Shown one piece after another: positions 1 to 49,137 of a stretch of 53,499 bases of DNA. The stretch comes from Prorocentrum cordatum (taxonomy: Eukaryota). The position numbers and the translations under genes are program-made. The stretch spans positions 62,001 through 115,499 of the forward strand of contig CAUYUJ010000310.1 of the NCBI GenBank assembly GCA_963575745.1, in the 5' to 3' direction. The first letter of the stretch is position 1; each line of letters begins with the position of its first letter. The notes below the pieces were generated by a model, which made no database searches, had not been told where the DNA came from, and worked only from the letters and a program-made list of their open reading frames with translations.

Positions 1-1284
1 CGGAGCTTATCAGCTCGACAGGGGCGTCAGTACTCCAGGTTGCCATAAGATCCTGTCCGAGTCCTGACAAGTCGTCGCCGCAATCGTCATTTCCGTCTTC
101 GACGTGCTTTTTAATGCGGCGAGGCTTGATGCCTGCTTCCTTTTCGGCTTTGAGCCTTTCCTTCTGCTTTATACGCGATTCAGTGGGTAAAGCTTGCTCG
201 TTTTGTTCGTCGGTCTGTGTACTCATTGTCGTGGTGGAATGGGTACATGCGTCAATCGCCAGAGTCGGGAGGGGGAGAGAACAGTCATCTATGATGACGC
301 GTCTATGTTTCTGTGGTGATTGAGTAGGCTCGTTTCCGAGCAAGACCGGTTCCTCGGGTTGCCAATACAACCGAGTACTGATGTTGGCAACCCCTGCAGG
401 TAATGGTGCATGCCAATCATACCCTGTTGGTTGATCGGTAACTGAGATATCTTGAATAACCGCGTTGGTATCCAATTGATTGTTACACGTCGGATAACTT
501 CAGACCATTTTGGTCCTCCTTTATGAGTCGTCACGTAATGACGAGTATTATGGTCTGTACGTGTATACGTATTTAAGTATACGGGCACGTTTCCGTGCGT
601 GGTGGTACTCCCCAGGATTTTGTCGTTTAGGTAACGGATGAGTGTAGTACGTGTCTGAGCCCGCCATTCAGCATGTCGTACCGTATGGCCGTACCAGTCC
701 AACACATGTTGTGGTATGGCCTGCTTACAGGTACATGTCCACAGCTTCGAGCTAATCGGTATCGATGATGCTATCTGCATATATGTACCACTTGGTGTAT
801 TGTCTTGCATATTGAACCGAATACCGAAATGACACAAACGCATCCGTATTACTGACAACTTCAGATCTTCCAGAGTATCACGTACTGGAGATAACTTCCA
901 AACGTATCCTGGGGGACCGAATATGATGATTTTCATGCGGAGTTTCTTGGCTTTTATCAACAGGTTCTGGATACGTGACCAGTGTGGGGCCACTCTCTTT
1001 CCTGGAGTTCGTATATACCAGTCACCCGGAGTACTGATCCATATGAGAGTGTAATCTCCACTGATCACCGCACCTAGATAATTTGTGCCCACGCTTGTCA
1101 TAAGTTCGTTGTGGGAAATACGGTCACAAATATAACCTCGTGTGCGGAGGTCGGCACATGCCTCCCTCGTATCTTCAATGACAAAAGCCCTCTTACTAAG
1201 GCAGGTTGCCCCGCTGTCCTTGTTACCCCCCGGCTTTTCAGCCATCAGGCAAGACGACGAGGGGGCGACGTCGCCCTGCCATCT
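1..1284 (-). CDS. 5' part of pol of element 1: degenerate DNMT-like domain and linker, one frameshift near 475, open at the window edge
   Basis: In frame with the polyprotein past the UGA. Contains LIWISTPGDW, IIIFGPPG, MRLCHFG and CTC..H. Restoring one base at about 475 turns RRVTIN-WIP into RRVTINLDTNAVIQD and gives a frame open to position 1 (..LPTESRIKQKERLK..HVEDGNDDCGDDLSGL). Confidence 0.7.
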
Positions 1285-1287
1285 TCA
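1225..1287 (-). promoter_or_regulatory. UGA stop plus H-type pseudoknot: candidate programmed readthrough signal between gag-PR and pol
   Basis: UGA (1285-1287) is in frame with the downstream ORF. Stem 1 is GGCAGGGCGACG (1269-1280) paired with CGUCGUCUUGCC (1248-1259). Loop bases GCCCCCU can pair with GGGGGGU (1225-1231). A GGCU-GAAA-AGCC hairpin (1232-1243) lies between them. Confidence 0.7.
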
Positions 1288-4200
1288 AGATGAAGAAGAT
1301 GTGCCTACAATATCTGCCAACATCTGGGCTTCCCTCAGATGCTGGAGCTCAGCACTGCAGCGCGCCGTGGCCTCAGAGGCGGATTGCTCCGCAAATGCTG
1401 TCAGCATCGATGGATTATCCATCAGCTGTTTCAGCGCGCCTTTGGACCTAGCGTCGCTGACCGTATGCAATTCACGATTAGTGTATCCCATCACTATTTT
1501 ACGGCGGGACTGCACAGCGTCCATGGGTACACTACCACCATGCTTGGCCAGTGTCCTGGCAACAAAACAATCGAACGTCTCGAGATCGTCGATGTTGTCG
1601 CCTCGCATGGTGGCCTTGGCGAGCGTCTCCATCAACCCCTGGGGCAGGTTTCCCTGCAATTGATTGCGCTCCTGCGCTGGGGTCGGCTCGCCTGTCAGCA
1701 CTGTCTGGAAGGACGTGCTGCTTGAGCCCGAGGCGGGTTGCCCCGCAGCTCCAAAACGATCACACCTGATCGACAGATGCCCTGACGGCAACTTCGTCGT
1801 CGGCATGATTTTGGAGCCTTCCGGGAGCTCCATCTTGACCTGCCCCTTACCAGGGAATATCAGCTTTTCCTGGCCTCGTTCAAGCACGATGATCGTGCGT
1901 TTGTCCTGCATACTATCGAGACCTAGGATGGCTGGCAGGTCCTTTCCACAGCCTGACACAATGTTCGTCTTGTATGAATCGTGTTGGGCTGACCCCTGGT
2001 ACTCGCAGGCAATGCTAAATGTGCCTACGGTATCCGCTGGGGCCGACCCCTCTCCCACTCCGTTGATATGCAAACGAGAGCGGGGCTCGAATGTACAAGC
2101 ACGACCATGTGACTCAGCAGCCTGAACGAACTTACGGCTCGTGTTCTCGCCCATGATGTTGATCTTCGAACCGACGTCGATGAGTATGGAATTTCCACCA
2201 TCATCCAAGAACGTCTTACTCGGCTGCTTGATGTGCACAGTTTCTGAAGTGTCGGCTGTGTCGGTAGGCGGGTTTCCCCGCGGCACATTCGTACTCCCTG
2301 GCGGGTTACCCCGCACGACACTGGCATGCGACTCGCTCTCGGCCATGCGTGCCAGGTCAATGTACTGGAAGTACGACACGTGCTGGGCGTGATCACCACG
2401 CTCCTCCCGCCAGTTGGCATACTCATCACGTATGCTCATATACTGCTCGCGGGTAGTGCGCCTTATCAGCGTTAGGTACGAGTGAAGGGCGATGTCTTGC
2501 AGCCCTTCGTTCATGACGTGATCCCGGTACCGCAGCCACTCCTCGAACTCCTCATTCGTCGCTGAGATGTTGACGGCCCTGGCTGCTGCTGCTGACGCCG
2601 CTGAGGATTCTGATAGGTCTAACGACGGACTATCAGTTTCAGGATTATTGGCATCTAGCATAAACGTTGTGTGTGTATTATCCATCTGATTCTGGAAATG
2701 TCGTACACGCAACTCGCGCAGCTGATCAGGGTCCAATGACATCTCAACCTCGCCTCCACTCTGGGGAGACATCTGAGGAGTATCCTGCAGGTTTCCCTGC
2801 TGAGGCGCCGTCATCGGGATAAGCTGATCGAAATATCCCGTTGCCATAGGCGGCCTTACCTCTTCAGGCAGGTGTCCCTGCTGGTGTGACGAAGCTGTCT
2901 GCATAGCTAGCATCCTGGCCGTCATCTCCTCCACCATGCTCCTTAGCTCCCGCAGCTCCCTCATTGACTGCTCGGGAGTCTGACTAAGGGAGCCAGTCCA
3001 TGGGAAGGACGATGTTATAATGCCAGGTGCACGACAGATCGCACATGGTGGCTGCTGTGGATCTCCCTCGCGCTGGTTTGTCACGTGGCCCACCACGTTA
3101 GAATTCCAGCATCCCTCGTGGAATAGGTGATTGCACCTCAGGCGATACACACTATCCCTGGGCTGAAATTCTTCGAGGCATACAGCACAGGTGTCCTCCA
3201 TCCCAGTAAAGACTTCTACGTCTGCTACCCTGGGATATACCCGCCGCTGCCTCTCCAGTACCGTCTCGGAGGGCATGAAGGCTGATGGGGGAGTCCCCGT
3301 TAGGTCCATCACCTCCGGCCCTTCGACATTTGGCATGGAAGTGGTAGGAGTCACGGCGGGCGAGTTTCCTCGCAAAGGTGAGCCCCTATTCCGCACCACA
3401 TCGAGTGCAGCTGCACGTGACTGGTCCCGTACACTTTGCACCGCCTGCCTCCTCATGAAACATGCCTGCTGAGTGTGGTGCGTCTGCCTGATGTAGTCAG
3501 GCACGCCCCTACTGCCAGACGATATTGAATGGGCAGTGGGTTGTACAACCACCTCTGGTGATGTTGGGGAAGGCATGAAGGCCATGTGCGGGTACATGGA
3601 GTGGTCACTGCAGCGCACATTGGTGAGGTGATGCATCTGATCCGCCAATTCCCGAACAAATTTGTTCGGGACCCTTGTACCGTCAGGGTATAATGGCGGA
3701 TTCATCTGCGTGGGTGGTGGCCTCTGGCCCTGAGACATGCTCGGATGGGCGTTGAACGCCAGGATAAAGGCTCTCTGCCGAGCGGGGTCCCGTGGGTTGG
3801 GACCCTCCGGTTCCCAGGACCAGGCTGGCCTCCACCTCTGCCCACTTGGGTGAGGCAGATTATGGTTCTGCACCTGCTGTACCGCGGCCGCCACTCTTGA
3901 GCGATAGTCGTCGGGTATACCCGCCCTGTGGTGGCTTGGTGTACCAGGCAGGTTTCCCTGCTGACTCGTTGGCGTGCCGGGCGGCATCATGTTGAGGAGG
4001 GCTGTGCTGTGATCAGCCCTAGCCGCAGCTAGCCTCTCCATGAGTGTGCCGTTTACTGCAGGGCGAACAGGTGTCCCAAATGGGGATTGTGCTGGCGGAG
4101 TGCCCGCTGGAGTCATGCCCCTTGGAGTGTGCATGCTCTGTGTGGGGCTTGCGTGCATTGGCTCGAACCGAGCAGGTCCGCTTGTAGGCAGGTTTCCCTG

Positions 4201-7200
4201 CATGGCTTGACGATTTCTCGTGGCCATAGCGGACATTGCTCCCTGGCCTGCGGCCCAGGGATCCTGCTGGTACAGCCTGTCCGCCAGCTGTTCTACCTGG
4301 TCAGGGTTCAGCGCAGCTGCAATCTGATCCAGGTCTGAAGTACTTATGGCCTGCCAAGACACGGCGCTCGGCCCTTGGCTTGGGGCACGGCTTGGAGCCG
4401 CGCTCCCGGCCTCACTCTCGGTGATCATAAAGATCCGAAAGATCTCAGGCTGGTTTCCCAGCTGGGTGGGGCTGTAGTGGTCCCCAACGTCCCTGTGGAG
4501 GTAGACCATGGCTGGATCAACGCCCTCTTGGTCTCGGGACCACTTGTACTTAACGCTGGAATCACCAACATCAGCCCACCTATCTGGGGCAGTCATCATA
4601 CTGACAGAGACTCGCGCACGGCGGATCCCCAAATATTCTGGGTTGCGCCATTGCCTTCCAGTGGTCAGGTCCTCTACATGGGAAATGTAATACGGTTCAA
4701 TGATACCGTTATCTCCCTCGGACAAGAGGACTCCGTTATCGGACCAACAGAACTTTATACCATCTTGTATGGCCTTGCGCCAATCTACAAAGATGATGAG
4801 GTCTGATTCTGGGTCCCACCCACTGTTCACGGCACGGCGGCGCAATGTCGGCACGAAGTGGATGTGTGAACGGCCTGTCCCCGTTTTCTTCGTGTTGTGC
4901 TCAGGTCTACAGGACAGGCCGTGCCACATAATGCCTTCGAAAGCGTGCCATCGAGTGCCATGCATGGCGACTTCAGGGTATTTGGCCGGTCTCCCGGCGG
5001 GTTCGTCGCACAGTACAATGTAGCTGTACAGCGACCATGGAGCTTTCAATTTCCATGAATGCCCCTGAGAGGCGCGGACGAAGATAGCAGGCTCGCCAGA
5101 GTCCCGCATTAGCACCTTGAATTGAAGGCGCTGTTTTTCTTCTCCGTCTGGTTCACGAACATGAACAACTTCCATCATGATGGCTGCGAGTTGGTCAACC
5201 GAGCGACCATACAACTGCTCGCTAATAACTTTGGCCTCTTCATAAGCGTGCCTCGAGTGACTTGTGTTCCAAGAAAAGTTCTCCACGAGGTCCACGAGGT
5301 TGATCCAACCATCATGATCATCAAAAGATTTCAGGCGCCACACAGGATTATGTGGCTTATCTGGCGCATGTCTACATATCCTGCTGATAGCTTTGCTTAA
5401 CCTTTTAAGAGTATCATTGGATCTGGGAAGAATTCCGGCCTTCCTGCATTCCTTCATGAATGGCTCATCCACCGAACGTATCGGTGGGAGCTTCCGAAGT
5501 GCCAGTCTATCCCTGATCAGATCTGGAGTCCCACTAGTGAAGGATGTGTCTCCTGGGTGGTGCAGCTGAACTGCTGGCGGGTTTCCCCGCATCGGAGCCT
5601 CTGTTGCTGAAGAGGCTGCGGCTCCTGAAGAGGAGGAAGCTGCGGCAGCAGCGCCTGGCGGGTTTCCCCGCGGAGATGCGCGACTGGCGCTGCCCCTGAT
5701 CTTCGGCACCCAGTTACCCCTCGACATAGCACCTTCATCGGACCTCCTGGAACGAGCCGCCACAGGCGAAGCTGGCGCAGGTGCATACTCACTGCGCTCG
5801 AAAGCTGCCGCCCGTTCCGCAATGGACTTGCTGCGGCTAAGCGAACGTCTTCGTTCCTCAGTGGGGTCCTGGGGTTGCTGCTTGGGCACAGATGCTGGTA
5901 GGAGCTGCTGTTTCGGCGGCGCCGGAGGCGGCTTAGGTGTCGGGGGTTCACTCTTGGCCTTCGAAGTTAGTGGGAGTGGGGGCTTTCTAGCCCCCTTCAT
6001 GTAGAGCTTGCTGGAATCCTCCAGCATCTTGCGAGTTGCCTCGCGTGTGCGTTCATCTACTGTCTGAATACGCTCCTCATCTTCCGCCACACGTTGAGCC
6101 TTTGTCTCGTCCTTGATGATCGGCTCTGGTTGTTGGGACTGGCTAGATACGCCAGGCGAGTTTCCTCGCATACCAGGAAGACTAAAGAGCGCGTCTTTCT
6201 CTTCCTGGGTCATGGCTACCATTCCCCTTGGAGCCGGAGTAGGTTTCTCTTCTTCTTTCGGATCCAAGTGGCCCAAGATCCCGAGACGACTATTCACTGC
6301 TGCGATCTCTTCCGGTGTCATCGGGTCAAGTGGCGGATGGCCCTCCTTAGGAGGGGTTTTGCCCCTGTTGGGGCTCAGGCCTTCGTTGTTTCCAACGGGG
6401 CATCCTGGCCTGTGATTCTGGAACGGCTGGGAACAAGGACCACATGCAGCGTGAGGCCTATACTGCTTGCGAGCCGCGATAATATCTCGCAACTGGGTCC
6501 GCGCTTCTTGAATTTCAGGGCGGCGGATGTTTGTTGCAAGCTGATAGCCTCCACGGATGGGTCTGCCATCGCCGTCCCTATAGGCAGGATTGCCCTGGCC
6601 GAAGGCCGAGTGTTCCCCTTTTCGGCGTCGTGGGTCGTTGTGTGGAAGTAGCTGGCCACCTCTTCTGGCAGCGTGTTCCTTTGGGCCAGCCTGTCTCCAA
6701 TCACGAGGGAGTCGAGCCTGAGGATGTGGCTCTCCTCTGACGCGCGTATGGGAACGAGATCTTCTGGTGTTCTCATCAGAAGAGGCTGCTGATGCAGCAG
6801 GAGCGGCACCCGTTGGAGGTGCTTGAGGAGGCTCCTCTGCGATCCCGGGTGGATCGCTCGATGGAGGCAGGTCTCCCTGCTGGGTGGAGCTCGGCGCAAG
6901 TGGCTCTTGTGCCGATGGTGATGATGGTTCAGACTCATCAGGGTCGAAATCGACCTCTTCCTCACCAGTCACGTCCATCATGAGGATGGTGACGTCATCC
7001 TCATCTAACCCACAACCATCGCCTTCTACTTCTTCTGATGTCGAACTACCAATTATGATGGCCATTGGCGCATCTGGTAAAGGCAGGTTTCCCTGCATGG
7101 CCGGCGTCTGGCCGTCACTCGGCTGTCCTGGAGTAGGAGGCACAGTCGTCGGCTCAGGGTCATCGACGAGCATAGGCTGCCTAGCAATGTTACGCATGGC

Positions 7201-9972
7201 CGTATGGTTTGGCCTCATCCCCAGCTCCTGGAGATTCCATCCTGGCGGGGGAAGATCATGACCACGCATAGCCATTGCCATTTCCAGGGCACGACGCCAT
7301 CTACCATGGGAGTATACTAAGTGTCGTTGCACTTCCTGAGGATTTATACGGTCAATGAGAGACAAAGCTGCCAAGAGTAGCTCTGAGCTACCGCAAGCAT
7401 CATTATCATTATCTGTCATAATACCAGCTTCAATTTGTTCTTGACTCTCAGGATCTGCAATTGCAAGTATCTCATGCGTCCACATGAGGGTCTGCAAAAG
7501 TGTACGCGGTCCATATTCGCCTGGAGCAAGCGAAACAGGAGGTATGAACGGAGAACCTGGTTCACCTGCAATGAAGGCCTGAACAAATGCTTGAGACTCC
7601 ATTTCAATTAAGTCTTCAATAGTATGGGGATATTCTCCCAGCAGAAAAGGCCTGTGTCCAGGCGGGATTTCGGGCGGAGGTTCGAGGTTCTGTTGAACCT
7701 CGGAAGGCGAAGCCTCTATAGTGGTGTCCTCTCCGTCGTTCTCGTAGGCCATGATGTTGCCTGGGTTCCCGAACATCCAGTCGAAGAAGGAAAGAGGCTC
7801 GTTTCCGAGCGTACCGTGTTCCACGGGAGTGAGTTCATTACTGCCCGTGACGAACCGGCGGACGTACTCGAGGTAATACGCGTATAATCCATGACCATAC
7901 CCCTCGAGCTCGTCAATGTTGTCCATGCCAACGACCCATGTGAAAAATATCTGTTCCATAGCCTCAAAGTCCTGGAGGCTCAGATACTCAATGGATGGTG
8001 TGCTTGAGCCGAAATGGACTTCGGACGACATGCCCTTTCCATTTCCCTTCGCTGGACAATCTCGCACAAGATGATCGGTACTACCACACTCATGACATTT
8101 GAGAACCTGGCCGTCTCTACCTCGCGGGTTTCCCCGCCTACCTTTGCCTTTTCCTGAGGTCTCTCTACGGCCTTTACCGCGGCCTTTTCCCCCAAAGAAT
8201 ATCTCATCATGTTGTTCATCTGAGAGCCTCTGGAGAAATGCCGCGATACCTCGCCCGTTCAACCTCCGACGACCACGCTTGCCTTTACCCTTTCCTTTAA
8301 AACTTCTGCGTATCCTCCTTCTAACACGACGCACTGGTTTTCGTGTGAACCTCCTCCACCTTCGCTTAGCCTGTTGTAACAGCCAGAATAAATGCTCAGC
8401 ACGCTGATTGTCGTTATCCATATTCATGATATCTGACCAATCTAGAGCTTCAACACCATCTGATGATATAGTGTCTGTATCGGTGCCGGAGTCGAAATCT
8501 TCGTCTCCTAAATAGGTGGATACACCGTCGGTTAGGGGATTTGATTCCCCCCATAACGAGCGGTGTGGTTGTGGTTCTCTAGAAGGAGGGCTGGTTGCCC
8601 AGCTTGGTTGTGATCGATCCCCTGCTAATAAAGCAGTGGATTCTCCTGGGTCATCGGCCCATATGTTTGAGGGCCCGTTTCCAGGCTGGACTTCAGTAGT
8701 CAAGGTAGTGTAGAAATTTCCACTACCAGATCCCCTTCCTCTTCCAAACACGGATCCTATGTTGCCAGGGGATCGTTCGGATAGGTGACCTACCGAACGC
8801 ATCGTTTCCAGCAACTCATCATATTGTTGTTGTGTTCGAGGCATTTGGTGGTTGAGTGGCTGCAAGAGTTGCGTGGCTTTCTGGTTGCCGACGCCTAAGG
8901 CGCGGAATAGGATAGTAGTTAGCAGTTGGAAGTTAAGAAGGTCGAATCCCACCGACTGTGCCTCAAGTCGGGCCATTTCGAATCGGGTAAGAGTGACATC
9001 GATTCGTTCCCCGTGAGCCGCATGGAAGTCGATGAGTTGTGTGCCGGAAGTGAGCTGTCGCTCATCTTCCAGGCGTTCGAACTTCATGCTGAGGAGGAAC
9101 ATGATGTAAGTTACTGGGTCCGTGTGGACCCCATCAATGTCAGCACCATAGTTTATAATGTCAGGCGGTACCCTCATGGCGAGTGTCCTCGCTAGGCCTC
9201 CCAGGCCGCGTTGTATTGCGGCCGCTTGGGCCTGTGGCGTCATACGTCCGCTTGTAACGTTGAGCCACGCGTTGACCTCGTAAATGTACTCACGAAAAGG
9301 TACATTACCCTGAGGGTCCCAGTATGGGCCATGTGTTTGCCCATCGGTGCTGTTATCTCCCCGACGCATGTGTGCGATTGCTGCCCCCAGCGCGAACCAT
9401 ATGATAGCGAAAACGATTAGCCCGAGAATGTGTAACGAAGAATGGTTATGATGAGCGGTGTCACGCTGGGGTAGCGCCTTGTCGAGTCTTCGAGGCGCTC
9501 TGTCTGGCGGGTTTCCCCGCCCTTGCTTCAGGTATTGCGTTATTGGCTCGTTGCCGAGCGGTTGATAGTAACGCAATGATGAAGCGTATATGGTACCAAT
9601 CTGGTCGTCTAGACGTCGTACCTCTCGTGTAGCTTCTTGCTCTTGAATAGATCCTCGTAAATGTACTGGGAGTGGTGGCGCAGGGTAGTAGGTGGTCACG
9701 AAGATCGCGCCGAAGAGTGTGAGGCTGAGAAGAGCAAGAGCTGACCACGCGAGAGGGCGGCCAGCTCCGCTACCAAGTCGAAAGTGAGCTTGGTAACTCA
9801 AATAGGGCATATAGCCTGTCATATAGCATCCGATTCCAAGGCGCTGACCGTGGACATCGGATGGCAAATAGCGTCCATCGCTCTGCTGTAGCTGTGAAGG
9901 TACAGTATGAGGGGTGGGCGGATAAGATAGGATAAGATCGATGTAATGATCTTTCCAGCACATAGCGAACAC
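1285..9972 (-). CDS. Gag-protease polyprotein with Tpt1/KptA and RING-H2 cargo (2895-aa ORF; first AUG after the PBS is at 9369)
   Basis: Uninterrupted 8.7-kb ORF with gag (about 8780-9369), CHECGSTDHLVRDC knuckle, Tpt1, RING-H2 and a retropepsin-like domain. The first ~65 codons lie in the putative LTR. Confidence 0.9.
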   Translation of the reverse strand: MFAMCWKDHYIDLILSYPPTPHTVPSQLQQSDGRYLPSDVHGQRLGIGCYMTGYMPYLSYQAHFRLGSGAGRPLAWSALALLSLTLFGAIFVTTYYPAPPLPVHLRGSIQEQEATREVRRLDDQIGTIYASSLRYYQPLGNEPITQYLKQGRGNPPDRAPRRLDKALPQRDTAHHNHSSLHILGLIVFAIIWFALGAAIAHMRRGDNSTDGQTHGPYWDPQGNVPFREYIYEVNAWLNVTSGRMTPQAQAAAIQRGLGGLARTLAMRVPPDIINYGADIDGVHTDPVTYIMFLLSMKFERLEDERQLTSGTQLIDFHAAHGERIDVTLTRFEMARLEAQSVGFDLLNFQLLTTILFRALGVGNQKATQLLQPLNHQMPRTQQQYDELLETMRSVGHLSERSPGNIGSVFGRGRGSGSGNFYTTLTTEVQPGNGPSNIWADDPGESTALLAGDRSQPSWATSPPSREPQPHRSLWGESNPLTDGVSTYLGDEDFDSGTDTDTISSDGVEALDWSDIMNMDNDNQRAEHLFWLLQQAKRRWRRFTRKPVRRVRRRIRRSFKGKGKGKRGRRRLNGRGIAAFLQRLSDEQHDEIFFGGKGRGKGRRETSGKGKGRRGNPRGRDGQVLKCHECGSTDHLVRDCPAKGNGKGMSSEVHFGSSTPSIEYLSLQDFEAMEQIFFTWVVGMDNIDELEGYGHGLYAYYLEYVRRFVTGSNELTPVEHGTLGNEPLSFFDWMFGNPGNIMAYENDGEDTTIEASPSEVQQNLEPPPEIPPGHRPFLLGEYPHTIEDLIEMESQAFVQAFIAGEPGSPFIPPVSLAPGEYGPRTLLQTLMWTHEILAIADPESQEQIEAGIMTDNDNDACGSSELLLAALSLIDRINPQEVQRHLVYSHGRWRRALEMAMAMRGHDLPPPGWNLQELGMRPNHTAMRNIARQPMLVDDPEPTTVPPTPGQPSDGQTPAMQGNLPLPDAPMAIIIGSSTSEEVEGDGCGLDEDDVTILMMDVTGEEEVDFDPDESEPSSPSAQEPLAPSSTQQGDLPPSSDPPGIAEEPPQAPPTGAAPAASAASSDENTRRSRSHTRVRGEPHPQARLPRDWRQAGPKEHAARRGGQLLPHNDPRRRKGEHSAFGQGNPAYRDGDGRPIRGGYQLATNIRRPEIQEARTQLRDIIAARKQYRPHAACGPCSQPFQNHRPGCPVGNNEGLSPNRGKTPPKEGHPPLDPMTPEEIAAVNSRLGILGHLDPKEEEKPTPAPRGMVAMTQEEKDALFSLPGMRGNSPGVSSQSQQPEPIIKDETKAQRVAEDEERIQTVDERTREATRKMLEDSSKLYMKGARKPPLPLTSKAKSEPPTPKPPPAPPKQQLLPASVPKQQPQDPTEERRRSLSRSKSIAERAAAFERSEYAPAPASPVAARSRRSDEGAMSRGNWVPKIRGSASRASPRGNPPGAAAAASSSSGAAASSATEAPMRGNPPAVQLHHPGDTSFTSGTPDLIRDRLALRKLPPIRSVDEPFMKECRKAGILPRSNDTLKRLSKAISRICRHAPDKPHNPVWRLKSFDDHDGWINLVDLVENFSWNTSHSRHAYEEAKVISEQLYGRSVDQLAAIMMEVVHVREPDGEEKQRLQFKVLMRDSGEPAIFVRASQGHSWKLKAPWSLYSYIVLCDEPAGRPAKYPEVAMHGTRWHAFEGIMWHGLSCRPEHNTKKTGTGRSHIHFVPTLRRRAVNSGWDPESDLIIFVDWRKAIQDGIKFCWSDNGVLLSEGDNGIIEPYYISHVEDLTTGRQWRNPEYLGIRRARVSVSMMTAPDRWADVGDSSVKYKWSRDQEGVDPAMVYLHRDVGDHYSPTQLGNQPEIFRIFMITESEAGSAAPSRAPSQGPSAVSWQAISTSDLDQIAAALNPDQVEQLADRLYQQDPWAAGQGAMSAMATRNRQAMQGNLPTSGPARFEPMHASPTQSMHTPRGMTPAGTPPAQSPFGTPVRPAVNGTLMERLAAARADHSTALLNMMPPGTPTSQQGNLPGTPSHHRAGIPDDYRSRVAAAVQQVQNHNLPHPSGQRWRPAWSWEPEGPNPRDPARQRAFILAFNAHPSMSQGQRPPPTQMNPPLYPDGTRVPNKFVRELADQMHHLTNVRCSDHSMYPHMAFMPSPTSPEVVVQPTAHSISSGSRGVPDYIRQTHHTQQACFMRRQAVQSVRDQSRAAALDVVRNRGSPLRGNSPAVTPTTSMPNVEGPEVMDLTGTPPSAFMPSETVLERQRRVYPRVADVEVFTGMEDTCAVCLEEFQPRDSVYRLRCNHLFHEGCWNSNVVGHVTNQREGDPQQPPCAICRAPGIITSSFPWTGSLSQTPEQSMRELRELRSMVEEMTARMLAMQTASSHQQGHLPEEVRPPMATGYFDQLIPMTAPQQGNLQDTPQMSPQSGGEVEMSLDPDQLRELRVRHFQNQMDNTHTTFMLDANNPETDSPSLDLSESSAASAAAARAVNISATNEEFEEWLRYRDHVMNEGLQDIALHSYLTLIRRTTREQYMSIRDEYANWREERGDHAQHVSYFQYIDLARMAESESHASVVRGNPPGSTNVPRGNPPTDTADTSETVHIKQPSKTFLDDGGNSILIDVGSKINIMGENTSRKFVQAAESHGRACTFEPRSRLHINGVGEGSAPADTVGTFSIACEYQGSAQHDSYKTNIVSGCGKDLPAILGLDSMQDKRTIIVLERGQEKLIFPGKGQVKMELPEGSKIMPTTKLPSGHLSIRCDRFGAAGQPASGSSSTSFQTVLTGEPTPAQERNQLQGNLPQGLMETLAKATMRGDNIDDLETFDCFVARTLAKHGGSVPMDAVQSRRKIVMGYTNRELHTVSDARSKGALKQLMDNPSMLTAFAEQSASEATARCSAELQHLREAQMLADIVGTSSSS
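1760..2200 (-). other. Retropepsin-like aspartic protease domain of element 1
   Basis: ILIDVGSKINIMG (D-x-G active-site strand), flap-like INGVGEG, LPAILGLDSM and KLPSGHL. Confidence 0.75.
3034..3189 (-). other. RING-H2 (C3H2C3) zinc finger inside the polyprotein
   Basis: CAVC-x14-CNHLFHEGC-x21-CAIC, with all eight ligands present. Confidence 0.9.
4670..5410 (-). other. TPT1: Tpt1/KptA RNA 2'-phosphotransferase domain inside the polyprotein
   Basis: Family motifs in the correct order: LSKAISRICRH, DHDGWINLVDL, KQRL, FVRASQGHS, HGT, GLS, GRSHIHF, SGW, IIFVDWRKAIQDGIKFCWSDNGVLLSEG-DNGIIEP. Confidence 0.9.
8056..8097 (-). other. CCHC zinc knuckle (nucleocapsid) of element 1
   Basis: CHECGSTDHLVRDC = C-x2-C-x4-H-x4-C, preceded by basic KGKGKG/RR tracts. 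Confidence 0.92.
9764..9775 (-). promoter_or_regulatory. Primer-binding site of element 1 (tRNA-iMet type)
   Basis: TGGTAGCGGAGC, identical to the PBS next to the LTR of element 3. Confidence 0.85.
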
Positions 9973-23957: not shown

Positions 23958-24970
23958 CCCCCAAAACCATCCTGTGGTGATGGGTCCTCGTTTCGAAGAG
24001 ACGGTGGCCCGCGTCTCCTCTCCCCCTCCTGCTCTCCTCCTCCTCCTCCTCCTCCTCCTCCTCCTCCTCCTCTCCTCTCCCCGCCCCCCCCTCCTCCTCC
24101 CACTCCTCCCTCCTCCCCCTCTTCCTTGCGTTTCACCAGGCCAGTGCAGCGTTTCGTAGCCCCATCGGGAGCTCCACCGACGGCGCCAGCGGCAGGGTTC
24201 GCATGGCGGCCCTGGGCCATTTCGGCACACCCCTCACGAGGATCGTTGCCCCATGGGGAGCTCCACCGAAGGCCCCAGTGGCAGCGTTCGCATGGCGGCC
24301 TCGGGGCATTTCGGCACACCCCTTACGAGTTTCGTGGCGCCATAGATGAGCTCCACCGAAGGCGCCAGTGGCAGCGTTCGCATGGCGGCCTCGGGCATTT
24401 CGGCACACCCTCACGAGGATCGTGGCCCCATAGGGAGCTCCACCGAAGGCGCCAGTGGCAGCGTTCGCATGGCGGCCTCGGGCCATTTCGGCACACCCCT
24501 CACGAGGATCGTGGCCCCATAGGGAGCTCCACCGAAGGCGCCAGTGGCAGCGTTCGCATGGCGGCCTCGGGCCATTTCGGCACACCCCTCACGAGGATCG
24601 TGGCCCCATGGGGCGCTCCACCGAAGGCCCCAGTGGCAGCGTTCGCATGGCGGCCTCGGGGCATTTCGGCACACCCCTCACGAGGATCGTGGCCCCATAG
24701 GGAGCTCCACCGAAGGCCCCAGTGGCAGCGTTCGCATGGCGGCCTCGGGCCATTTCGGCACACCCCTTACGAGGATCGTGGCGCCTATAGGACAGGGGCT
24801 TCGCCGAGGGCGCCAGTGGCAGGGTTCGCATGGCGGCCTCGGGCCATGTCGGCACACCCCTCACGAGGATCGTGGCCCCATAGGAGCTCCAGCGAAGGCG
24901 CCAGTGGCAAGGTTCGCACGGCGGCCTCGGGCCATTGCGGCACACCCCTCGCGAGGATCGCGGCCCCATA
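23958..24970 (+). repeat. Composite repeat A: conserved head, (CCT)n, then about nine 89-bp tandem units
   Basis: Unit CGTGGCCCCATAGGGAGCTCCACCGAAGGCGCCAGTGGCAGCGTTCGCATGGCGGCCTCGGGCCATTTCGGCACACCCCTCACGAGGAT (89 bp). The head is shared with 30730-30784. Confidence 0.92.
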
Positions 24971-25199
24971 GATGCGTTGCCTCAACAGCCGCGCCCTGGC
25001 GTCGTACTCCGCCGTGCCGAAATGCAACGCCACCTCCTCCCTCATGGCTCTCAAAGCCCTCTTCTGCTTATTTGCTCCTCGGTCAGAGGGGCGCCGTCCG
25101 TGTCGTCGTCGGCGCCCGCGAAGACGGCCGCGAACGTGTTCCTGAGCATGTCGGGCTCCGGCGTGAAGCTGTGGCTGCATAGGGGGCGCGGGCAAAGAT

Positions 25200-30723: not shown

Positions 30724-31678
30724 TTTCCCAACCATCCTGTGGTGTTGGGTCCTCGTTTTGAAGAGACGGTGCCCCGCGTCTCCTTCCTCTCCTCCTCCGC
30801 CTCCTCTCCCCTCCTATCATCGTCATCATCATCATCATCATCACCATCGTCATGCGTCAAGCACACCCATTTTGGCACATCCCTCACACGTTTCGTGGCC
30901 CCATAGGGAACTCCACCTAAGGTCCAAGTGGCGCAGCTCGCATGGCGCCACCGCTCTATTTTGGCACACCCCTCACACGTTTCGTGGCCCCATAGGGAGC
31001 TCCATTTACGGTCCAAGTGGCGCAGCTCGCATGGCGCCACCGCCCCATTTTGGCACACCCCTCACGCGTTTCGTGGCCCCATAGGGAACTCCATCTACGG
31101 TCCAAGTGGCGCAGCTCGCATGGCGCCACCGCCCCATTTTGGCACACCCCTCACAGATTTCGTGGCCCCTCAGGGAGCTCCTTTTGGCACACCCCTCACA
31201 CGTTTCGTGGCCCCATAGGGAGCTCCACCTAAGGTCCACGTGGCGCAGCTCGCATGGCGCCACCGCCCCTTTTTGGCACACCCCTCACACGTTTCGTGGC
31301 CCCATAGGGAGCTCCATTTACGGTCCAAGTGGCGCAGCTCGCATGGCGCCACCGCCCCATTTTGGCACACCCCTCGCAGATTTCGTGGCCCCTCAGGGAG
31401 CTCCACCTGAGGTCCAAGTGGCGCAGCTCGCATGGCGCCACCGCCCCATTTGGGCACACCCCTCACACGCTTCGTGGCCCCATAGGGAGCTCCACCTAAG
31501 GTCCACGTGGCGCAGCTCGCATGGCGCCACCGCCCCTTTTTGGCACACCCCTCACACGTTTCGTGGCCCCATAGGGAGCTCCATTTACGGTCCAAGTGGC
31601 GCAGCTCGCATGGCGCCACCGCCCCATTTTGGCACACCCCTCTCACTTTTCGTGGCCCCTCAGGGAGCTGCACCTAAG
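30724..31678 (+). repeat. Composite repeat B: same head, pyrimidine/(CAT)n tract, then about nine 89-bp tandem units of a related variant
   Basis: Unit CGTGGCCCCATAGGGAGCTCCATTTACGGTCCAAGTGGCGCAGCTCGCATGGCGCCACCGCCCCATTTTGGCACACCCCTCACACGTTT, period 89. Confidence 0.92.
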
Positions 31679-31679
31679 G

Positions 31680-32268
31680 TTCCTGAGGGAAAAGCCTCAC
31701 GGGGGACCTCGCGGGCCCGCTGGTGTTCATCGAGCCCCGCGCGTCGGAGCCGTTCACCTTCCGCACCTCCAAGGTCACGCGGACGGGCTTCCCGTTCTCG
31801 CACGGCAGGGTCATCACCGCGGTGGCGTGCCAGGGGCGCGCCATGCGCGAAGGCGACGGGGCGGGGGAACGGCGCTCCGGGGACGGCCAGACCTCCGGGG
31901 CGCGAGCAGTCCGCGGCCAGACCTCGGTCCTGTGGACTCTCGCCCTGGGCCGTCGGCTGCCCGGCGCACTGCTCCCTCGGCCGAGTCGCCCAGGTGTGAT
32001 CCTGGACTGCGGCCGCCACGAGGTCGGGAACGGCAAGAAGGAGGACGACGACTGGTGGCTGGAGCTCTATGTGCTGCTCTCGCGCGCCACGCGCCGCGAG
32101 GACCTCCTGCTCATGCGGGCGCCGCGCATCGAGTTCTTCCTGGCAGGACCGCCGGAGGGCCTGCGAAAGCAGCTGGAGCAGTTTGCAGCGCGCGCGAAGC
32201 GGTGCAGGAGGGAGGCGACGGCCCTCGCCAGGGAGCTCGGCTTCACCGAGTTTATCCGCGAGGCCTGA
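31680..32268 (+). pseudogene. C-terminal Pif1-family (Helitron-type) helicase fragment, two exons
   Basis: VTRTGFPFSHGRVITAVACQGRAM (motif V-like), VILD and LYVLLSRATRREDLLL (motif VI-like). Confidence 0.7.
31853..31993 (+). other. Putative 141-nt GC-AG intron with terminal inverted repeats
   Basis: Junctions AG|GC..CAG|G. Removal joins QGRAMRE-G-VILDCGR. GGCGAC and GTCGCC lie at the two ends. Confidence 0.65.
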
Positions 32269-48399: not shown

Positions 48400-49137
48400 C
48401 CAGGCGGAATGTCCTTCATGATGCCATCGCAGAAGTTCCTGGGATACACCGCTGCCTTGGCTGTCCGCTTGATGCCGTCTACCGCTCATTCGAGGCGCCG
48501 AAGGCGCACTGATCCGTCGTGTAAGTCTTCATGACACCGCTGTCGACTGTCAGTGAGAAATCCGACTTGTCCCAGAAATCGCTGTTGTTAAGCTTCTCAA
48601 TTGCATGTCGCTAATCGTCGCTCTTGGAATCGCTGATATCCTTGTTCGTAATCTGATCGTCGGTGTCTGGTGACTTCGCTCCGTCTGGAGAGCCTTTGTA
48701 TCCTTATGTCTGCTGGCGATCGACCATGGCATGCACGTCGGTGACCAGAAGGTGACTGATATCTTGCAAACTCGTTGAAGATGCTGAAGGTGGTTCTGAT
48801 TGTGTGAATTCGCCATGTTCCAGCCATATCGGTAATCTACGGGAAAGCCTACTAGAATACCTTGAGTATATGCACGATGACTGAGACGACCGCTGCCTGA
48901 CATTCGTGCTTGCATGTCAACATGCGAGATGCCCATGAGCTTCAACCACCTCGTGTAATTCTCGGGCGTCACCACTGGCAGCTGGGTTTCGAAGTAGAAC
49001 TCCTCAGGCATAACTCGGTCGATTCCTTCCATGTATTTCTTCGTGCCATCGTCGAAATCATGCGGCCAGAGATTCGTGCCGTTCCACTTCGTCGTCTCAA
49101 AAGATCTCCATGGCTGGTTGTAGGCCTTGCCGGTCAT
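48400..49137 (-). pseudogene. Cytosine-5 DNA methyltransferase-like domain of element 3
   Basis: Motif I-like MSGSGRLS, GFPVDYRYGWNM, motif IV-like FWSPTCMPWS, and motif X-like AAVYPRNFCDGI in another frame; lies between PR and IN. Confidence 0.7.

Follow-up and report, generated by a model that had tools for sequence, protein, structure and literature searches.

The minus strand of a 53,499-nucleotide (nt) stretch of Prorocentrum cordatum DNA (GenBank assembly GCA_963575745.1, contig CAUYUJ010000310.1, positions 62,001 to 115,499; the whole stretch is referred to here as the window) carries what its sequence and that of its relatives suggest is a giant Ty1/copia-like long terminal repeat (LTR) retroelement, and the junction between two of its open reading frames (ORFs) is probably a signal for programmed stop-codon readthrough. 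One stop codon, which is UAG or UGA and never UAA, a shared frame on either side of it, an open linker and a covarying stem at fixed spacing are together what programmed readthrough predicts, and they support the proposal, first made from the letters of the window, that such a signal is placed after the protease of this element.

Few retrotransposon readthrough signals are known, and those few are poorly validated. A signal whose stop, frame, spacing and stem are backed by natural covariation may serve as a model for readthrough driven by 3′ structures in algae and plants, and it suggests an annotation rule whereby the two ORFs are treated as one gene in these very abundant elements. An unusual retroelement also comes to light at this locus, one that combines Tpt1, RING and methyltransferase-like domains with arrays of GNRA hairpins and is of interest in itself.

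Layout of the Junction

The upstream polyprotein is encoded by a minus-strand ORF at 1285..9972 (2895 codons as listed from GTG), which closes with a single UGA at 1287-1285; beyond the UGA the same frame stays open for 13 codons up to the ATG of the ORF listed at 289..1245 (minus strand; ORF2 hereafter), exactly as first described and to the base. The RNA reads ...UCU UCU UCA UCU before the stop, whose immediate context is UCU UGA AGA, and the 60 nt upstream contain no slippery heptamer of the form XXXYYYZ, in line with the initial observation. The parts of the junction are as follows.

1285..1287, minus strand: UGA stop, the proposed readthrough codon; position kept in relatives
1281..1284, minus strand: spacer AGAU; the stem common to relatives starts at post-stop position 6-7
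1269..1280, minus strand: 5′ arm of stem 1, GGCAGGGCGACG; hairpin energy, covariation, RNAalifold
1260..1268, minus strand: loop UCGCCCCCU, of which 1266-1260, GCCCCCU, is the proposed 5′ strand of stem 2
1248..1259, minus strand: 3′ arm of stem 1, CGUCGUCUUGCC; covariation, RNAalifold
1232..1247, minus strand: connecting loop, UGAU followed by the hairpin GGCU-GAAA-AGCC (1243-1232); contains the ATG at 1245-1243
1225..1231, minus strand: GGGGGGU, proposed 3′ strand of stem 2 (candidate pseudoknot)
1189..1284, minus strand: open linker of 32 codons, from the stop to the conserved ORF2 domain

Stem 1 of the window copy comprises 12 base pairs (bp), two of them G-U, with a hairpin energy of −21.3 kcal/mol, and begins 4 nt past the stop, as had been claimed. 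The 4-nt spacer is a property of this copy and not of the family, whose conserved stem is set 5-6 nt behind the stop; the spacer of the window copy is shorter because its stem has 1-2 extra bp at the bottom. The loop segment GCCCCCU and the downstream GGGGGGU can form 7 bp, with a duplex energy of −12.7 to −13.8 kcal/mol. The junction occurs once in the window, with no further copy found and the 33-nt stem sequence unique at up to 3 mismatches, and the repeat families found within the window are unrelated to the junction element.

Conservation of the Stop, the Frame and the Linker

The comparison draws on 13 metagenome loci that were fetched by ORF2 peptide patterns alone and share 41-65% ORF2 identity; alignment A1 (21 sequences) proved too diverse for the pattern search, and the smaller alignment A2 was used. 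All 11 loci with upstream sequence carry one in-frame stop at the junction, which is TGA in three (L001, L006 and L013), TAG in the other eight and TAA in none, and the sequence of a further locus, L005, opens precisely with a junction-type TAG. In each of the nine loci that show both a recognizable protease and ORF2, the protease ends in the frame that ORF2 uses; L010 and L011 contain an additional frameshift within the protease. Private in-frame stops do occur elsewhere in the relatives (L002 at 7322-7324, L009 at 2458-2460, L003 at 2-4, its first codon) and mark these metagenome copies as partly decayed, so that the universal junction stop stands out. No second conserved stop was seen further downstream, the stop between ORF2 and the integrase-like region of L009 being private to that locus.

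Closer copies agree. When 1.84 billion representative proteins were searched with the junction read through as X, 1072 matches were returned, which split into two groups, one covering the protease and tail and the other ORF2. All four proteins of 78-88% identity that reach the junction end exactly there (P0153, P0154, P0155 and P0157), and the diverged homologues P0002, P0003, P0147 and P0113 end at the same place with ...SSS[SND], P0002 and P0003 at 46-49% identity. One further protein, P0115, is a frameshifted variant.

A sense codon in sister copies would mark the UGA as a private nonsense mutation of a decaying copy that happens to be followed by a chance structure. At least one defect, the loss of 1 nt near 474/475, is indeed private to this copy, and private nonsense codons lie elsewhere in L002, L009 and L003, as listed above. 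Close copies and diverged loci nevertheless keep the stop, which is not private because close copies, distant homologues and 11 of 11 diverged loci share its position, and stem 1 covaries; a private mutation is therefore vanishingly improbable.

The sequence between the stop and the first conserved ORF2 domain, 32-82 codons long, is free of in-frame stops in 13 of 13 sequences. Over seven lineage representatives (414 codons) frame 0 contains 0 stops, frame +1 contains 4 and frame +2 contains 20. These counts bear on a different explanation, in which the codon is a true terminator and pol is made from an internal promoter or subgenomic RNA, by reinitiation, from an internal ribosome entry site or from a non-AUG start, the conserved stem then serving packaging, dimerisation or pausing. 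In its favour, the junction of Tca2 of Candida albicans, the closest copia-type case, gave no readthrough in Saccharomyces cerevisiae and contained a minor promoter (PMC2194720). The linker peptide, moreover, is unconstrained, and many other small hairpins occur in the element. Yet a terminator requires neither the frame shared by 9 of 9 loci nor a linker kept open in one frame only, 7 of 13 linkers have no in-frame AUG, the stop is never UAA and the spacing from stem to stop is exact. True termination with separate expression of pol is accordingly improbable, and programmed readthrough accounts better for these features.

Abundance and Variation Among Copies

In contigs from four sequencing runs the stretch behaves as a high-copy repeat, with short contigs and summed depths in the thousands. 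It turns up under three organism labels as well as in metagenomes from marine, estuarine and fresh waters, and proteins 69-91% identical to that of the window bear the source label Pyramimonas sp. The RNA runs that matched did so for at most 8% of sampled words, and scans of viral contigs with P0001 and alignment A2 returned no relatives. No published account relevant to this element was found in searches on Pyramimonas retrotransposons and on copia elements with DNMT or Tpt1.

None of the best 40 of 346 variant rows falls at 1285-1287. The ATG at 1245-1243, the single AUG of the window's linker and the listed start of ORF2, is a minority allele, TTG accounting for 2207 of 2804 depth in X1, 14 of 14 in X6, 1816 of 2151 in X7 and 45 of 65 in X2. 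Ten X1 contigs (426 of 6131 depth) are without one C of the loop C-run at 1261.

In P0121, 16 codons including the stop are missing and the two ORFs are fused in frame; one X7 contig, of depth 9, jumps 84 nt from 1232 to 1315; and a 33-nt GT...AG stretch, noticed by eye, spans the stop. Such cases would fit removal of the stop by splicing or programmed deletion; a related alternative is that the codon is decoded, by way of an altered genetic code, a suppressor tRNA or the insertion of selenocysteine. However, the P0121 deletion is without GT-AG ends and lies between short repeats (by eye), the 84-nt skip is a single contig of depth 9 among thousands, and an intron would need neither an open frame nor a covarying internal stem. 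The use of both UAG and UGA excludes selenocysteine, and since ORFs of 1360-2895 codons contain neither codon at any other in-frame position, the hosts would read both as stops. Taken together, loss or reassignment of the stop is highly improbable.

A Conserved Stem at Fixed Spacing

The 40 nt that follow the stop align without gaps in 13 sequences (alignment A3). Eleven of them have CAGG or CGGG beginning precisely 6 nt behind the stop, with GAGG in L002 and a deviating sequence in L006, and 12 of the 13 have a stem that sets in 5-6 nt behind the stop. When columns 9-19 are paired with columns 29-39, 88.2% of cells are paired, compared with 46-51% after a shift of the 3′ partners by 1-3 columns. 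Eight of the 11 pairs have changes on both sides, and the covariation score of 0.564 (shuffled, 0.249±0.042) was reached by none of 500 shuffles; RNAalifold arrives independently at this helix, 7 of its 10 pairs being compensatory. The check suggested at the outset, alignment of other copies for a conserved stop and compensatory changes, has thus been borne out on both counts.

In 12 of 12 sequences the local fold of lowest energy is stem 1 (−10.7 to −21.3 kcal/mol), and 110-nt RNAfold predictions recover it in 10 of the 12 sequences that share it, the window and L003 being the two that do not; in the L007 group the helix is interrupted. Hairpins with 9 or more contiguous bp are infrequent (6 over the 9972 nt of the element, 29 over 56.4 kb of sequence from these elements), and one that begins 5-8 nt after the junction stop is present in 8 of 13 sequences. 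Comparison of relatives thus provides strong support for stem 1 as a conserved helix.

A Candidate Pseudoknot Stem

The original prediction held that the loop GCCCCCU pairs with GGGGGGU. The 7-bp complementarity is present, and across lineages the corresponding stem 2 is moderately supported. Most lineages carry GCCC in the loop, always at positions 20-23, L001 and L013 carry CGGC, and the complement to the loop lies 8-21 nt past stem 1. The proposed strands are:

Window: GCCCCCU / GGGGGGU
L005: UGCCCUC / GAGGGCA
L003 and L012: UGGCCC / GGGCCA
L008: CUGGCCC / GGGCCGG
L002 and the L007 group: GCCC / GGGC
L001 and L013: CGGC(U) / (A)GCCG

Mononucleotide shuffles are a weak control for a pairing of this kind and were replaced by windows of real sequence, the pairing of each loop with the next 30 nt being compared with real 30-nt windows of the same elements. 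The resulting empirical p values are 0.006 for the window, 0.008 for L005, 0.006 for L008, 0.023 for L003, 0.024 for L012, 0.036 for L007, 0.046 for L002, 0.13 for L001 and 0.19 for L013; combining six lineages by Fisher's method gives p of about 1e-5, an optimistic value because the lineages share ancestry.

How much of the signal is pseudoknot bears directly on a simpler alternative, in which readthrough would be driven by an extended stem-loop and the stop context alone, stem 2 being fortuitous or otherwise used. Extended 3′ stem-loops without a pseudoknot stimulate readthrough in some RNA viruses, and it is stem 1 that is strongly supported here, whereas stem 2 has 4 bp in two lineages and is unremarkable by shuffles. 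In addition, duplex energies across lineages often equal those within a lineage: for 8 of 10 loops, all except those of the window and L005, the downstream stretch of another lineage matched or beat the loop's own, in L002 as many as seven of nine. Set against this, GCCC is fixed at positions 20-23 and GGGC falls within 8-21 nt of stem 1 in four lineages, a tetramer that these elements contain rarely, at about 0.003 per nt; the pairing is extended to 6-7 bp in a lineage-specific manner in the window, in L005 and in L003, L008 and L012; and the empirical p is 0.006-0.05 in seven of nine tests. A stem-loop acting without a pseudoknot therefore appears rather unlikely, and stem 2 is probable on these comparisons.

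The GAAA-capped hairpin that the original prediction placed in the connecting loop is present at 1243-1232, but it is not conserved in other lineages; it belongs to the dispersed class of GNRA hairpins of this element, described below. Rfam returned no relevant match for window positions 1100-1400 (E≤10) or for six relative loci (E≤1). Curated Rfam includes a family for the gammaretroviral gag/pol readthrough pseudoknot.

Proposed Mechanism and Points Against It

Under programmed readthrough, most ribosomes would stop at the UGA and release a polyprotein with gag-like, Tpt1, RING and protease parts, and a small fraction would insert a near-cognate tRNA and continue in frame. These ribosomes would cross the unconserved 32-codon linker into a pol-type polyprotein, predicted to start with methyltransferase-like domains that are followed, in relatives, by integrase-like, reverse transcriptase (RT) and RNase H-like sequence. 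A stable stem from 5-6 nt after the stop would be the stimulator: frameshift pseudoknots sit 5-9 nt after the A-site codon, and by comparison with that spacing a stop codon in the A site should place the stem at the ribosome's mRNA entrance. The loop of the stem probably pairs with the G-rich stretch 8-21 nt further on, giving an H-type pseudoknot like that of murine leukaemia virus (MuLV).

Besides the behaviour of the Tca2 junction, several points weigh against this interpretation. UGA followed by A is not a classic leaky context. It is from conservation only that we infer readthrough as the means of bypassing the stop, and its efficiency and the role of stem 2 are inferred likewise. A minority sense codon at 1285-1287 may be found beyond the best 40 of 346 variant rows, and the window copy is itself defective downstream of the signal through its deletion near 474/475. 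Among the relatives, L006 misfits stem 1 and instead has a longer, interrupted hairpin with a GAGA loop that starts about 15 nt after its UGA, and L004, which lacks upstream sequence, opens with a TAA in frame, 26 codons ahead of the domain, that may or may not be its junction stop and has no stem 1 behind it. The linker peptide shows no constraint, the 27 differences between L007 and L009 being distributed as 8, 10 and 9 over the three codon positions, so that no codon-position bias of the kind that signals translation is seen in this pair. As for structure, RNAfold, given the window copy by itself, arrives at another nested fold, with a stem 1 probability of about 0 (96 nt, −41.0 kcal/mol, z = −2.8), from which it follows that single-sequence folding neither proves nor disproves stem 1. 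Stem 2 is weak by mononucleotide shuffles (p 0.04-0.42), it is just 4 bp in the L002 and L007 lineages, and the shared ancestry noted above tempers its combined p value.

Architecture of the Element

The window covers the 5′ two-thirds of the element and ends before the RT region, and the RT and integrase readings given here come from relatives. The coding features of the window copy are listed below.

1288..9972, minus strand: upstream ORF, with a gag-like region, Tpt1/KptA, RING, protease and a helical tail ending ...GTSSSS
about 8053-8100, minus strand: weak CCHC knuckle in the gag-like region; Pfam
about 4714-5406, minus strand: Tpt1/KptA (RNA 2′-phosphotransferase) domain; Pfam, E 6e-23
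about 3031-3195, minus strand: RING finger; Pfam
1732..2190, minus strand: predicted retropepsin-fold protease domain; D-x-G-S motif, AlphaFold2, Foldseek
289..1245, minus strand: ORF2 as listed; conserved part about 590-1188, with a predicted C5-cytosine-methyltransferase-like fold
2..475, minus strand: ORF2 continuation in another frame; relatives read ...PTEARIRQKERLK...DDCGDD in one frame with ORF2

The knuckle, the Tpt1/KptA domain and the RING finger are the three Pfam matches of the upstream ORF. Tpt1/KptA and RING are unusual retroelement cargo within a gag-protease polyprotein, and a RING is also found in the relative L002. The domain just before the C-terminal tail is, from its predicted structure, a retropepsin: the AlphaFold2 model has a mean predicted local distance difference test score (pLDDT) of 85.1, the top Foldseek matches are the FIV, EIAV, XMRV, RSV and HIV proteases (probability 1.00, E from 2e-4), and D42, G44 and S45 are invariant across 25 sequences (alignment A4). 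Pfam gave no match to this domain, even at E up to 5.

What lies beyond the stop departs in part from the original prediction of pol: integrase-like and RT sequence does follow further on in relatives, but a methyltransferase-like domain comes first. The AlphaFold2 model of this first ORF2 domain (mean pLDDT 80.8) matches DNMT2, DNMT3A, DNMT3B and DNMT3L in Foldseek with probability 1.00 and E of 2e-5 to 1e-3, at modest TM-scores of 0.3-0.5; by eye, the glycine-rich S-adenosylmethionine motif seems to be missing from 590-1188. A second ORF2 domain in relatives (in L009, within 250-2457) contains the motifs ELCGGxGR and LQPNC, which are reminiscent of the C5 methyltransferase motifs I and IV. 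In the ESM Atlas this second domain falls nearest to unnamed clusters (0.89), the closest named cluster being DNA_methylase at 0.79, which is to be read as a lead only. Pfam returned nothing for ORF2, the second ORF2 domain or the integrase region, even at E up to 5. A weak tblastn match to the second domain of L009 also lies at window positions 48733-48924 on the minus strand (28% identity, E 2e-7), and could represent either what is left of another element or a host gene that shares this domain.

In the window copy, one G near 474/475 that most copies carry (15.7 of 15.7 depth in X6, 530 of 530 in X7) is missing; its loss splits ORF2 from the ORF at 2..475 and renders this copy defective downstream of the signal. 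In L006 and L002, ORF2 runs without a stop into the integrase-like region. L009 has an ORF2 of 736 codons and, after it in that frame, an ORF of 1360 codons that encodes an HHCC-like motif, then a weak match to RT, then RNase H-like sequence. The HHCC-like motif ahead of RT was recognized by eye in L009 and L002; Pfam and PDB sequence searches gave no integrase match in relatives, the third ORF of L009 returning 0 PDB hits. An RVT_2 match was seen in L009 alone (E 7.5e-7), its 29.4 bits falling below the Pfam cut-off of 31.6 bits. The gene order of L009 appears copia-like, and on this sequence-level reading the element is probably a giant Ty1/copia-like LTR retroelement.

GNRA Hairpins and Other Features of the Window

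Small hairpins of the form GC-NN-G / GNAA / C-N′N′-GC stud the element between 1201 and 9520 on the minus strand, for example at 1644-1657, 2268-2281 and 4449-4462, and one lies in the linker just 3′ of the proposed signal.

1201..1214, minus strand: GCGGGGCAACCUGC, dispersed GNRA-capped hairpin in the linker

The motif GCNGGGAAACCNGC occurs 18 times, always on the minus strand, against an expectation of 0.73. Five-bp GNRA hairpins number 28 in the sense and 0 in the antisense orientation of the element, compared with 1.2 in shuffles, and over all related elements 58 and 7, compared with 5.8. Fourteen of the 18 motif copies share one codon phase. Their stems covary (GCAGG/CCTGC, GCGGG/CCCGC, GCTGG/CCAGC and others), with the consequence that the encoded peptides change (QGNLP, RGNPP, LGNQP). 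This pattern points to a signal at the level of RNA within coding sequence, possibly in the form of dispersed packaging or protein-binding sites; a search of the literature for GNRA hairpins as retrotransposon packaging signals found none.

Elsewhere in the window, two arrays of an 89-nt tandem repeat lie at 24038-24971 and 30777-31833, with unit identities of 72-100%, and the rest is GC-rich (60-68%) with many CCT/GGA and poly-C simple repeats.

Comparison with Known Systems

In-frame stops between Gag and Pol are found in the Ty3/gypsy elements Tj1, Tcry1 and Tosmo1-3 of fission yeast, where the context is GAA TGA CT and the stop of Tj1 is essential for transposition (10.1101/2022.12.06.519325), and Skipper of Dictyostelium is cited alongside as an in-frame-stop retrotransposon (10.1101/2022.12.06.519325; PMC5911963). 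The element described here shares with them a conserved in-frame stop read as programmed readthrough; it differs in that those elements are gypsy-type and have a short conserved context, with no structure described as far as these sources go. The protease of Skipper precedes its stop.

Retrotransposons that bear a DNMT have been described as LINE, DIRS and Gypsy elements, namely, SymbioLINE-Dnmt, SymbioDIRS-Dnmt3 and KnitGypsy-Dnmt3, and the Copia elements of Symbiodinium are said in the same account to be without a DNMT domain (PMC5890265). Identity with a dinoflagellate DNMT retrotransposon was considered and rejected, those being LINE and DIRS elements according to that source (PMC5890265). 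The predicted readthrough product of our element begins with a DNMT-fold domain and would therefore likewise hold a methyltransferase-like module inside a retroelement polyprotein; here the element is Copia-like, and its module is recognized from predicted fold only, with no Pfam DNA_methylase match.

A nearer relative in kind is Tca2, the best-studied copia case and a Ty1/copia element in which gag and pol are separated by UGA with an 8-nt spacer and a predicted pseudoknot, pol being expressed from gag-pol RNA (PMC2194720). Both are copia-type elements with an in-frame UGA and a predicted 3′ pseudoknot. The stop follows gag in Tca2 and the protease here, and the present signal has covariation support over diverged lineages, of which none is reported in the Tca2 account as far as it goes.

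The fullest parallel is offered by MuLV, in which an in-frame stop, a purine-rich spacer and a pseudoknot yield about 5% readthrough (PMC2194720). As in Moloney murine leukaemia virus, a single in-frame stop separates a structural from an enzymatic ORF and is followed by a short spacer, a stable stem and a loop able to pair downstream in an H-type topology; UAG, the stop of MuLV, is also the one most relatives use here, as UAG-G. Differences are equally plain: the spacer is 5-6 nt and not about 8, stem 1 is longer (9-12 bp), the stop comes after the protease and not before it, the element is copia-like with an algal host, stem 2 is here no more than probable, and there is no similarity in sequence or in Rfam. 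Given this lack of an Rfam match, the signal would be analogous and not homologous to the gammaretroviral one. We may tentatively entertain, as a possibility somewhat short of an even chance, that a cosmopolitan clade of giant copia-like elements in protists of the sea and of fresh water, with Tpt1, RING and DNMT-like domains, evolved a post-protease H-type readthrough pseudoknot independently of gammaretroviruses and conserved it at 41-65% ORF2 identity, perhaps in cooperation with its layer of GNRA hairpins.

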